Below, in pieces: positions 49,251-55,176 of a stretch of DNA of 64,000 nt. The position numbers were made by a program, and so were the translations under genes. The notes beneath the pieces are model-generated. The model saw nothing but the letters and a program-made list of their open reading frames with translations. It was not told where the DNA came from and did no database searches. The stretch is from a virus (lineage: Duplodnaviria > Heunggongvirae > Uroviricota > Caudoviricetes). The stretch covers positions 32,001 through 96,000 of IMG/VR virus record IMGVR_UViG_2617271072_000004. One strand, 5' to 3'. Within the stretch, counting starts at the first letter, position 1, and each line of letters opens with the position of its first letter.

Positions 49251-49847
49251 ATGGCTGTGATTCCAATGTCGTACTCCCCGGGTACTGTCGCTCGTCGATT
49301 TTCGATCCTGGACGGAGTTACCATCCAAGGTGTGCTTTACCAGGTTATATGGGATTCCAAAACCCCATTTGCAGCTGTAATAGAGGCTGCGCCTTCTATT
49401 ATCGATGGTGATATGCGCCATAAGGTTGTCGCTACTCTTGAACTTCAACGTCGCCCGCAGCTTGAAGGCGTACTGGTAAGGAAGTTCTGGGAGGATAGCG
49501 ATGTTGCCCAGATTGAAGGTATCGTGGTTGATGGAACCGTCCGGGATGTCGGTTTAGCTACTTTTGTTTACGAAACCGTAGCCTCAAAAGCTGGTGTTGT
49601 TTTGCTCAGTGATAATGAGCAATACGAAGGTGGAAAAGCTCTTTGGCAACACATCGCCCGTCGCTCTTCCGAGCTAAAAGTGTTTATCCTTGACACCGAT
49701 GCCGCTCAGTATTACCCGTTTGACGGCGAACGTGTTTGCTATGACGGGGTAAGTATTCCTGAATCCGAGATATGGAGTGAACACCCAGATCGAAGTAAGC
49801 ATGGGGTTGTTCTGGTCGCTGAATCCATAATTGGAAATGCGGCATAG
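49251..49847 (+). CDS. hypothetical protein (198 aa)
   Basis: ATG with AAAGGGGGA ribosome-binding site. Confidence 0.55.
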   Translation: MAVIPMSYSPGTVARRFSILDGVTIQGVLYQVIWDSKTPFAAVIEAAPSIIDGDMRHKVVATLELQRRPQLEGVLVRKFWEDSDVAQIEGIVVDGTVRDVGLATFVYETVASKAGVVLLSDNEQYEGGKALWQHIARRSSELKVFILDTDAAQYYPFDGERVCYDGVSIPESEIWSEHPDRSKHGVVLVAESIIGNAA

Positions 49848-50029
49848 CAGTAAAAAATTCCTTGCTCCTTAAAAGGGGAGAGGGTTAATCTACGTATGCT
49901 AAGCATAGATATGGCCTCAGATTAATGTTAAGCGTCTTGCAGGACGCGTAATGTTATCTGGGGCTTTCTTCTATCTGCTTTTCGGGTAATGCCTGAAGCA
50001 GATAGCCTCAAGCACCCGCAACGATTGTA

Positions 50030-51771: not shown

Positions 51772-52072
51772 AGTTTCTTTTTCAAGCTCTTCGATGAGCT
51801 GTTTTGCTGACAGCGTTCTTAGCCATTGAGCTGGCGCTTTATGGGCACCGAGTCCGCTCGCTCTGTGTAGAGCATTAAGGTTGTAACGGCCAGCGCGGTC
51901 GGTCGTAATTTCAACACCACAAATAACAGGCAGAGTGGTTGAAGGATCGACATTTTTGATGAAGGTTTGATATATTCATATCCGCATTGAATGTTTGTTG
52001 CATTTTTTCTCCAAATTTGCATCAACCTTCAATCACCAGCTCGAAATGGTGATTCTTTGCACTTAGAAAACG

Positions 52073-52089
52073 AAATTTATTAGAGCAAA
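52073..52089 (-). promoter_or_regulatory. C1 repressor operator
   Basis: minus-strand TTTGCTCTAATAAATTT (16/17). Confidence 0.7.
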
Positions 52090-52166: not shown

Positions 52167-53212
52167 TTAACCTATTGCTACTGGTTTTAACAAACCAGCA
52201 TCAAGTAGCTTGCGAGTTAACCACTGCTGGCCTTTACCCGTTAATTGGGGCGTCAGCCGTATCTGGTAGCCATTTTCATCATCCAGCACCACTTCTTTCA
52301 CCGTGAAATACCCGGCGTTAATGTACTGCTGGCGCGGTACGTTTTTTGCGCGCACCAAAAGCCATGAGAATGCCGTTCTGGCGCAACCATGAGAAAAGGG
52401 CGTTTTGCTTAAGTCCAACGACCTTTGCAAAGTTCCCGATCAGGATTCCATTAGCCACTGATACCCGGTCGGCAAAATCGACTTTAGGGGCTGCGGCCAC
52501 CAGCTGTTGTTCCAGCTGCAATTTCTGTTCTGCCAACTCGGCAGCCAGGCGTAGGGCTTCTGGTAATGTTTGGGGGATCGATGGGGTAGGGGAGTTTGCC
52601 TGCTGCAATTCTTCCAGTTTGTCGATCAGCGAACGGCGGACCGCTTTCGATTCGCGCGCGGCGACTCGCAGGGCTTGTTTGTAGGTCATGGTTATGACAA
52701 CCATAGGCGTACCGCCACCTGGCGGCACGGTTGCACTTTTTTGTGTAACCGTCCTCACCTTCTAATTCGTCGAGTATTTTTTCGATGAATTTGTTGTTCC
52801 GAACCTCTGGTTCCCCACATAACTTACGCGCTTCATTGACCATCTTTAACAGTGTCAGGCTGTCGATTGTGTCTCCGGTGGTGGGGATGACATTCACGGC
52901 TGGTGCTGGCGTTGCTGAAGCAACAGGTGCTGGTTTTTTAACATTCAAATTATTACTGGTCATTCTATGTGCCTCCTTTCTCATTTCTGCTGCCACCGTT
53001 GCGTAACGTAGACGTCCTTGTTCAATCAAATAATCCCTGATCTCGGCTATCAGTAGCCTGTTGATCACAGCCTTATCTGTTCGGGTATAAAAACGCCTGG
53101 TTATCATGAAATAGTTGGCAATTGCGCCGGGGATCTCCCGTGTCGGTATACAGGCAGTATGCAGGGCGATCGCTTCGGCTATGTCATTACGGGTGACGAG
53201 AGGTTTTTTCAT
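52167..53212 (-). CDS. ant: antirepressor-like protein with C-terminal KilAC domain (ant-like), frame interrupted at two A6 runs (plus-strand T6 at 52332-52337 and 52737-52742)
   Basis: three ORF fragments join as ...EDGYTKSATVPPGG... and ...MAFGARKNVPRQQYINAGYFTVKE... if one base is removed at each run; start overlaps the icd stop (ATGA). Confidence 0.65.
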
Positions 53213-53430
53213 AAACCCCCCTGAACGTCGGCAGAGAAGGGGAGGCTCCAGTAACTAAGTGAATTGCGCGAGTTAGTTGAAAAACGGGCAGTAAAAATGC
53301 AGGGGCCATCAGGCAATTGAGAGCGTGCTTCGTCTTCAGTTGCTGCGATAACGAAGTGATAGTGGTGTTTTTTACAGGAATAGAAACGCCAGATGAATTC
53401 TGGGCGTGCGCAAGGATTGGCATTAACCAT
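53209..53430 (-). CDS. icd: small protein translationally coupled to ant, icd-like (73 aa)
   Basis: 73-aa ORF with GAGG ribosome-binding site; position between the c4-like region and ant. Confidence 0.5.
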   Translation of the reverse strand: MVNANPCARPEFIWRFYSCKKHHYHFVIAATEDEARSQLPDGPCIFTARFSTNSRNSLSYWSLPFSADVQGGL

Positions 53431-53464
53431 AGTTACGGCCTCACAATCAGGTTTAACAACCTGC

Positions 53465-53570
53465 TACCCGCTGCTAAACAGGTGGCAGGACGTGACGGGG
53501 TTAGCAGACTGGCGATTGTGAAACCAGCAGGCCGAAGCCTCCCCATCACGCCCCACCATAATTTGGGCGT
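53465..53570 (-). ncRNA. candidate c4-like antisense RNA region
   Basis: contains TCACAATC complementary to GATTGTGA at the icd ribosome-binding site (53447-53461) and to an upstream copy (53625-53641); exact ends not determinable. Confidence 0.3.
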
Positions 53571-53744
53571 AACGCGGTTTTACGGACACAAAAATACCGC
53601 AATATCGGATATCTGCGGCTGTCCGCACAATCATTCAGGCTGCTAAACCCGGTCGCAGAATTTGCTACGACGGCGGAACTATAAGCCTGAACGATTAAAA
53701 GGTCAATATGATGCGAAAAGATAGCATTCGTGACTTAAAAATAC

Positions 53745-53761
53745 AAATTTATTAGAGCATT
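53745..53761 (-). promoter_or_regulatory. C1 repressor operator (Op51-like)
   Basis: minus-strand AATGCTCTAATAAATTT (16/17). Confidence 0.65.
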
Positions 53762-53857
53762 ATCTGCTTAATAAATACACAGTTGGATCTAATAACCTCT
53801 TTTTTTTAAAGGCGAAAATATGTACCCTAAATGGGTTATAAGGCAGGTGAGGTTATA

Positions 53858-54010: not shown

Positions 54011-54329
54011 ATGCTGATTCGTTTGTTTTTAGTGCTTTCCTTTTTAACATTTAAATGTTTTTGCTGATGAAGTTGACTTTTCGAAGGTAGATTGTAATTC
54101 AGTGGAAACAAGAAAAGCTCTTATTGAAGAATATAACGAAATATTATCGTCATATGGAATAACAGTGGTTGATTCTTATAATCAAAAAACTATTCAGAAA
54201 GGAATAAATAAACTGGTCTGTTATGGGGTTTACCAATATTCAGATGGCTCTTCGGAGTATGTTATTTATAAAGCATACCCAAATAGTCTTGGTGAATTAA
54301 TTAGTGAGTTTAAACCGATTAATGAGTGA
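54011..54329 (+). CDS. small secreted protein, frame interrupted at a T5 run (54058-54062)
   Basis: GGAG ribosome-binding site and signal peptide MLIRLFLVLSFLTFKCF join ORF 54102-54329 if one T is removed. Confidence 0.45.
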
Positions 54330-55144: not shown

Positions 55145-55176
55145 AAAAAAAACGCCCATTAAAGGGCGTTTTTATT
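55145..55176 (+). terminator. rho-independent terminator
   Basis: ACGCCC-ATTAAA-GGGCGT followed by T5. Confidence 0.75.

Follow-up and report, generated by a model that had tools for sequence, protein, structure and literature searches.

The closest described systems to the locus examined here are the immI operons (c4-icd-ant) of the plasmid prophages P1 and P7. In both, the 5' end of c4 is made by RNase P, and it is a classical result that an icd'-lacZ fusion without its own c4 is repressed when c4 is provided on a plasmid. The C4 precursor was reportedly found to be a substrate of RNase P by Hartmann et al. in 1995. According to a passage in the supplement to PMC2864571, c4 is believed to regulate ant through pairing of its a' and b' sequences with a2 and b2, one of which overlaps a ribosome-binding site, and a1 and b1 are proposed in the same passage, with reference to Citron & Schuster 1990, as competitors for c4. 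Full repression of ant needs C4, and Icd inhibits cell division (PMC8198154). The heteroimmunity of P1 and P7 rests on small differences in immI (PMC6906374). A second system that bears on this locus is that of the Salmonella prophage Gifsy-1, where the small RNA IsrK activates the translation of AnrP in trans by more than 100-fold, and where a processed RNA of ~80 nt (STnc1160) is complementary to IsrK (PMC4825925).

We analyzed a window of 64,000 nt, the whole stretch of viral DNA introduced above, with a focus on positions 53431-53761. With a probability of about 95%, we assign the minus strand of this interval to a P1/P7-like plasmid prophage, as the leader of its immI operon (c4-icd-ant), the transcription of which would start at the promoters P51a and P51b under the control of the C1 repressor. 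The original prediction, a c4-like antisense architecture upstream of icd, was borne out, as the interval aligns to the c4 regions of both P1 and P7 and matches the corresponding Rfam models. Its wording was too weak, since the c4 switch of the window is an already known and previously described feature, namely the P7 specificity allele of c4 itself.

Identity of the locus and layout of the leader

To place the locus, the interval 53150-53850 was used as a megablast query, and P1-family phages were the sole matches, with 99.3% identity to P7 from the operator onward and 95.9% identity to P1 across the whole query. A 4.2-kb query around the locus was 99.6-99.7% identical to many P1-like plasmids of 80-130 kb, the hosts of which are E. 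coli, E. albertii, and Salmonella. The window contains 13 C1-operator-like sites against 0.3 expected (consensus ATTGCTCTAATAAATTT, ≤ 3 mismatches), and the Rfam scan of the window gave a single C4 match and three tRNAs. The P1-family matches, the C1-operator-like sites, and the tRNAs together therefore define the context as a P1/P7-like plasmid prophage. The features of the leader, of the genes that it precedes, and the tRNA genes are as follows.

53745..53761, minus strand: C1 repressor operator Op51 (Oc4), AATGCTCTAATAAATTT, with one mismatch to the consensus; equals the P1 feature 'Oc4; former Op51'
53718..53747, minus strand: promoter P51a (P2c4), -35 at 53747..53741 and -10 TATCTT at 53723..53718; placed by base-for-base homology to NC_005856
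53678..53706, minus strand: promoter P51b (P1c4), TTGACC, 17-nt spacer, TATAGT; 10/12 consensus positions, at the position of P1c4 in P1
53632..53684, minus strand: c4-a1b1 two-hairpin motif (RF03163), 55.5 bits against a gathering threshold of 46.7, E = 2.9e-12
53590..53618, minus strand: terminator-like hairpin between b1 and c4, a homologue of the terminator of IsrK, CCGCA (53618..53614) and TGCGG (53601..53597), then TATTTTT
53481..53557, minus strand: predicted mature 77-nt c4 antisense RNA (P7 allele), equal at 77/77 positions to the c4 annotated as misc_RNA in NC_050152
53209..53430, minus strand: icd, 73 aa, first regulated gene, an intact ORF that carries the name icd in the records of P1, P7, and the nearest plasmid
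52167..53212, minus strand: ant1/ant2 antirepressor gene, the ultimate regulated target, by alignment to P1 and P7 ant
30560-30632, 32272-32344, and 32350-32422, minus strand: three tRNA genes (Rfam)

At the sequence level, the predicted Op51 is accompanied by P51a and P51b as in an immI region, and these elements are identical to the annotated P1 features. The promoter scan made no independent call at P51a. Transcription from P51b would start near 53671, as judged from the position of the promoter. Downstream of this point, the a1b1 motif folds locally into two hairpins (-14.4 kcal/mol), the second of which carries a1 in its loop. The CCGCA/TGCGG hairpin that follows is nearly invariant among 90 distinct related sequences, and together with its U-run it may act as a terminator. 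The hairpin is of modest local stability (-6.5 to -9.1 kcal/mol), and a simple terminator scan made no call at it because its loop exceeds 8 nt. The sole call of that scan in the region was a weak hairpin inside icd (53403..53389), which we disregarded. The icd gene starts with the ATG at 53430, its stop codon overlaps the start of ant1 (ATGA, 53212), and the ant-like gene is followed by a kilA-like gene.

Alignment of the leader with those of P1 and P7, the first check that the original prediction had called for, showed that every base is equal to P7 (AF503408 / NC_050152) from 53759 to the ATG of icd. P7 also has the same b' and a' specificity alleles and the same icd-ant1/2-kilA order downstream. 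Upstream, however, P7 carries upf50.x genes where the window has sim genes like those of P1, and the first two bases of the operator (53761 and 53760) as well as everything upstream of them follow P1 and not P7. P1 (NC_005856) shares this sim flank and has the same order of elements, Oc4-P2c4-P1c4-a1-b1-c4-a2-b2-icd-ant, in one-to-one agreement with its GenBank annotation, and its leader is ~94% identical to that of the window (20 differences in 331 nt). In the interval 53731-53850, a mosaic junction is seen, P1-like on the sim side of the operator and P7-like from 53759 onward; the changeover from P1 to P7 falls within 53760-53731, at the C1 operator or just inside it. The element is a mosaic of P1 and P7 that combines a P1-like sim flank with a P7-type immI.

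Several side observations were made on the wider window. The C1 operator matches include those at 33089-33105 (minus), 52073-52089 (minus), and 53745-53761 (minus), and among the 13 sites, an Op53-like one precedes kilA, and two divergent ones overlap each other at 33078-33105. The three tRNAs fit the tRNA cluster of P1-family genomes. A match to the sok antitoxin RNA (RF01794, 94.7 bits) at 49843-50017 (minus) points to a toxin-antitoxin module of the hok/sok type, located downstream of the lytic replicon region.

The ant gene of the window differs from that of P7 in having two homopolymer frameshifts: at 52742 and again at 52347, a run of A's contains one additional A, which interrupts the frame. 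The plasmid NZ_CP065205, which is 99.7% identical, lacks both insertions, and its Ant is intact. Compared to this plasmid, the window has six +1 insertions, at 55173, 55152, 54055, 52742, 52347, and 51957, all of them in runs of A or T; the insertion at 51957 frameshifts kilA, the one at 54055 lies in a sim-region gene between simA and simC, and the c4 leader is free of all six. From their sequence context, the six insertions are probably sequencing or assembly errors rather than signs of decay, and it is unlikely that ant and kilA are real pseudogenes because all six indels are single-base insertions in A or T runs. If the frameshifts in ant were real, c4 would control icd only.

Fold of the c4 RNA and its antisense boxes

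The Rfam C4 model (RF01695) matched the window at 53563..53478 (minus) over its full length (1-87/87) with 69.6 bits, above the gathering threshold of 45. Matches to STnc370, rimP, STnc350, and ctRNA_p42d (E 0.3-0.7, far below gathering) were regarded as noise. The minimum free energy (MFE) structure of the 77-nt c4 (-44.9 kcal/mol) consists of a 17-bp closing stem, a UUCG-capped hairpin, a second hairpin, and three unpaired bases (ACC) at the 3' end, and it includes the GCUUCGGC tetraloop hairpin. The second hairpin holds b' in a 9-nt loop and a' lies in a single-stranded joint, and in the c4 ensemble the mean unpaired probabilities of b' and a' are 0.96 and 0.94, respectively. The RNA therefore shows the long closing stem, the UUCG-type hairpin, the second hairpin, and the two exposed antisense boxes of the C4 family. 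The tRNA-acceptor-like 17-bp stem with its free 3' ACC is a hint, at the level of the sequence only, of excision by RNase P.

The second check that had been proposed, RNA folding, likewise gave a stable structure. A 77-nt segment that is offset by one base from the mature c4 (53558..53482) has a folding energy of -45.3 kcal/mol with z = -5.87 against shuffles. Thus, neither of the two outcomes named in advance as grounds for abandoning the prediction, a missing alignment to c4 and a missing stable structure, was observed. The whole leader folds with -126.4 kcal/mol (z = -7.6).

This high stability of the full leader and the presence of c4 and its targets on one transcript would suit a c4 that works chiefly in cis, by switching between alternative structures of an unprocessed leader, instead of a processed antisense RNA acting in trans, and the homologous isrK-orf45 locus of Gifsy-1 has been read in this manner, as a cis structural switch that is opened by IsrK (PMC4825925). 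We consider a mainly cis-acting c4 very improbable, however, because annotations and citations treat the c4 of P1 and P7 as a 77-nt processing product and RNase P substrate, because c4 sets the immunity specificity between co-resident P1 and P7 (PMC6906374), which requires action in trans, and because the c4 module folds independently, taking in the MFE structure of the whole leader exactly the same shape as the isolated RNA. The two boxes of c4 and their four targets are located as follows.

53640..53646, minus strand: a1 box TTAGCAG, exact reverse complement of a'; counterpart of the P1 'putative a1 target site'
53626..53632, minus strand: b1 box GATTGTG, exact reverse complement of b'; counterpart of the P1 'putative b1 target site'
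53514..53520, minus strand: b' box CACAATC, P7 allele, in the 9-nt loop of the second c4 hairpin; read from 53521, it is the 8-mer TCACAATC
53501..53507, minus strand: a' box CTGCTAA, P7 allele, in the single-stranded joint of c4
53471..53477, minus strand: a2 box TTAGCAG, 3 nt downstream of the 3' end of c4; counterpart of the P1 'target site a2'
53439..53448, minus strand: b2 feature with the b2 box GATTGTGA (53448..53441), overlapping the icd Shine-Dalgarno sequence GAGG (53442..53439)

In this arrangement, a1 and b1 lie upstream of c4 with the two-hairpin a1b1 motif (RF03163), and a2 and b2 lie downstream of c4, with b2 on the ribosome-binding site of icd, the GAGG of which is 9 nt before the ATG. 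In the annotation of P1, the counterpart of b2 is called 'target site b2 ... repression of icd ant translation'. The sequence TCACAATC, which had been predicted in the region of about 53505-53520, is found at 53521..53514 on the minus strand, within one base of that region. A copy of GATTGTGA is indeed present at the icd Shine-Dalgarno sequence, but the interval originally given for it, 53447-53461, overlaps 53448..53441 by two bases and is ~6-13 nt too high. The upstream copy, at 53632..53626, also exists, but it reads GATTGTG followed by C and is therefore a 7-mer (7/8 bases) and not an 8-mer. The proposed a1/b1-c4-a2/b2 logic matches the leader; the prediction had described only its b'/b1/b2 half and had missed the second set, a'/a1/a2.

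Complementary motifs of this length may also occur by chance in a non-functional intergenic leader that encodes no regulatory RNA. We therefore generated 5000 dinucleotide shuffles of the 331 nt and searched each for 7-mers with two reverse-complement partners. At least one such triple was found in 627 of the 5000 shuffles (12.5%), so that the b set by itself is not beyond chance, whereas two independent triples were found in only 57 (1.1%). The signal of the boxes is decisive only when it is taken together with the structural and comparative evidence, that is, the unpaired state of the boxes, the compensatory changes, and the matching across 113 loci described below. On the structural side, an origin by chance is opposed by the C4 and c4-a1b1 covariance models, which both score above gathering, and by the fold of the one-base-offset 77-nt segment (z = -5.9 relative to shuffles). 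When flanking bases were included, stem nucleotides distorted the RNAduplex energies (for example, P1 a' against the a1 of the window gave -11.6 kcal/mol), and for this reason we did not use these energies to quantify the discrimination between P1 and P7.

Co-variation of the boxes among natural alleles

If the boxes pair with their targets, differences in one would be matched by differences in the other. Among the 20 differences between the leaders of the window and P1, 12 fall within the six 7-nt boxes, two in each box, and all 12 are compensated in the partner boxes; P1 thus has a different specificity allele, with b' CACUAAC (CACTAAC in DNA) and a' CUGUCAA (CTGTCAA). By analogy with P1/P7 heteroimmunity, the c4 of P1 should not repress the icd and ant of the window, nor should the c4 of the window repress those of P1. 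A third b allele is found in D6 (NC_050154), with b' CGUAAGU and ACUUACG at both b1 and b2, while its a allele is of the P1 type. The c4 region of D6 is ~87% identical to that of the window, matches Rfam C4 with 69.6 bits and a1b1 with 55.9 bits, and has the same order of elements upstream of the icd homologue, but the antirepressor downstream is of a different type.

A degenerate pattern, in which the c4 scaffold was fixed and the boxes were left free, retrieved 113 complete loci from IMG/VR (the L005-L123 set). These carry at least seven b' alleles and two a' alleles in 12 combinations. The b' alleles in P1-like elements are CACAATC, CGTAAGT, CACTAAC, CATTCGT, CATGTAC, CACAAGT, and CTTGAAC, and the P7-type combination of the window is the commonest (28/113 loci). 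In all 113 loci, a1, b1, a2, and b2 are exact reverse complements of their boxes, at near-constant offsets, and among the 90 distinct sequences the variability per column peaks at exactly the six boxes while the remaining leader is nearly invariant. The boxes and all four targets therefore co-vary between natural specificity alleles, as in immI.

These comparisons bear directly on an origin of the motifs by chance. Chance would have to account for boxes that are matched in 113/113 loci with 12 allele combinations and for the compensatory nature of all 12 box differences from P1. Transfer as a single recombining block might in principle keep unrelated matches together, but this is opposed by the interleaved order of the boxes and the independent assortment of the a and b alleles: because the order is a1-b1-b'-a'-a2-b2, and because the a and b alleles assort independently, a single crossover cannot yield matched sets. 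Apart from the frequency at which shuffles give one matched triple, the evidence is against chance, and we give this explanation practically no weight. All six boxes, including a1 and b1, appear to be under selection, since the matching of a1 and b1 is kept in all 113 loci across 12 independently assorted combinations.

The same set of loci is informative about the coding potential of c4. An ATG-initiated ORF of 56 codons (53634..53464) spans the region, and the old GenBank record X15639 lists 'c4: CDS', in line with the early view that c4 is a small protein repressor. However, 35 of the 113 loci have ATA at the position of the start codon, the length of the frame varies from 17 to >69 codons among related loci, and the variation sits in mutually complementary boxes and not in third positions of codons. 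The RNA structure model fits the region, and the current records of P1 and P7 annotate c4 as misc_RNA. A protein product as the c4 repressor is thus extremely improbable.

Proposed mechanism and the parallel with IsrK

In the mechanism proposed for this leader, a single transcript would carry the a1 and b1 boxes in the two-hairpin motif, then the terminator-like hairpin and the 77-nt c4, and finally a2 and b2 ahead of icd-ant1/2, and c4 would be cut from this very transcript, which it also regulates. The unpaired b' and a' boxes of c4 would then pair with b2 and a2 on the mRNA. As b2 covers the ribosome-binding site of icd, this pairing would block the translation of icd, and as ant is coupled to icd, the synthesis of the antirepressor would be blocked as well. 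The C1 repressor would stay active and the prophage would remain immune. For this leader, the analysis itself shows the homology and the structure, the co-variation and unpaired state of the boxes, and the overlap of b2 with the ribosome-binding site; the processing of c4, its action in trans, and its effect on ant are taken over from published work on P1 and P7. Because the boxes are those of the P7 allele (b' CACAAUC and a' CUGCUAA), we predict that the prophage of the window has the immI specificity of P7 and not that of P1.

The upstream half of the leader resembles IsrK. The segment 53671..53590 of the window aligns to the Rfam isrK model (RF01394) over its full length with 43.7 bits, below the gathering threshold of 50, and with a 12-nt insertion in the terminator loop. 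The score of D6 is 46.5 bits, and those of lambdoid loci and Gifsy-1 are 53.8-79.3 bits and pass the threshold. In Gifsy-1 of Salmonella, the isrK match (79.3 bits) overlaps a c4-a1b1 match (48.1 bits), a C4 match (69 bits) starts 25 nt after isrK, and an antirepressor-like gene, STM2616, follows. Its boxes, a' ACGCCAA and b' CGGUGA, are matched in the loop and tail of IsrK and again at the ribosome-binding site of anrP. The layout of IsrK, 'orf45' (STnc1160), and AnrP is thus that of the window, with a promoter, the a1b1 hairpins, a hairpin with a U-run, and a C4-family RNA; as in the window, a2 and b2 lie at the Shine-Dalgarno sequence of the antirepressor gene, which has an AUGA-coupled upstream frame. 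Stx2/O157 prophages show the same tandem: isrK and c4-a1b1 overlap, a C4 RNA and an antirepressor gene come directly next, and the a and b boxes are matched. The lambdoid isrK-C4 loci have the same CCGC...GCGG and U-run as the window. The isrK-C4 tandems are located at 34131-34329 (minus) in L127 (Gifsy-1), 1124-1325 in L126, and 501-709 in L124. Sub-threshold matches to the OrzO-P antitoxin RNA (39-42 bits against a gathering threshold of 60) were seen just upstream of the tandem in two short contigs of O157 and Salmonella phages (L124, 369-447; L125, 1272-1350).

Unlike the leader of P1 and P7, IsrK is reported to be an sRNA activator that binds Hfq and belongs to a lambdoid prophage, and a short terminated leader RNA is annotated in neither the P1 nor the P7 record. 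The paper on IsrK does not mention c4 or cite the work on c4 (PMC4825925), and an APSE paper presents both RNAs side by side without a link between them. In the annotation of P1, the role of a1 and b1 is still 'putative'. From the sequence comparison, IsrK looks like a terminated a1b1 leader, and 'orf45'/STnc1160 looks like a homologue of c4. We tentatively suggest, as a reading with rather less than even odds, that the a1b1 hairpins of P1 and P7 and the hairpin with its U-run (53671..53590) give a terminated leader RNA of ~80 nt, a counterpart of IsrK, which would serve as a decoy that titrates c4 and thereby releases icd and ant.

The window serves as a positive control, as a textbook antisense-RNA immunity switch was recognized from the sequence alone in the original prediction and the computation agrees with it. 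Its c4 allele is the commonest among at least 12 box combinations that circulate in P1-like elements. The natural variation points to a selection on a1 and b1 as strong as that on a2 and b2, which goes slightly beyond the existing annotation, as does the likeness to IsrK, 'orf45', and AnrP, which would link two literatures. If the decoy reading is true, the 'orf45'/STnc1160 of Gifsy-1 would be a c4 homologue, and the activation of AnrP by IsrK would be the c4 circuit seen from the other side.
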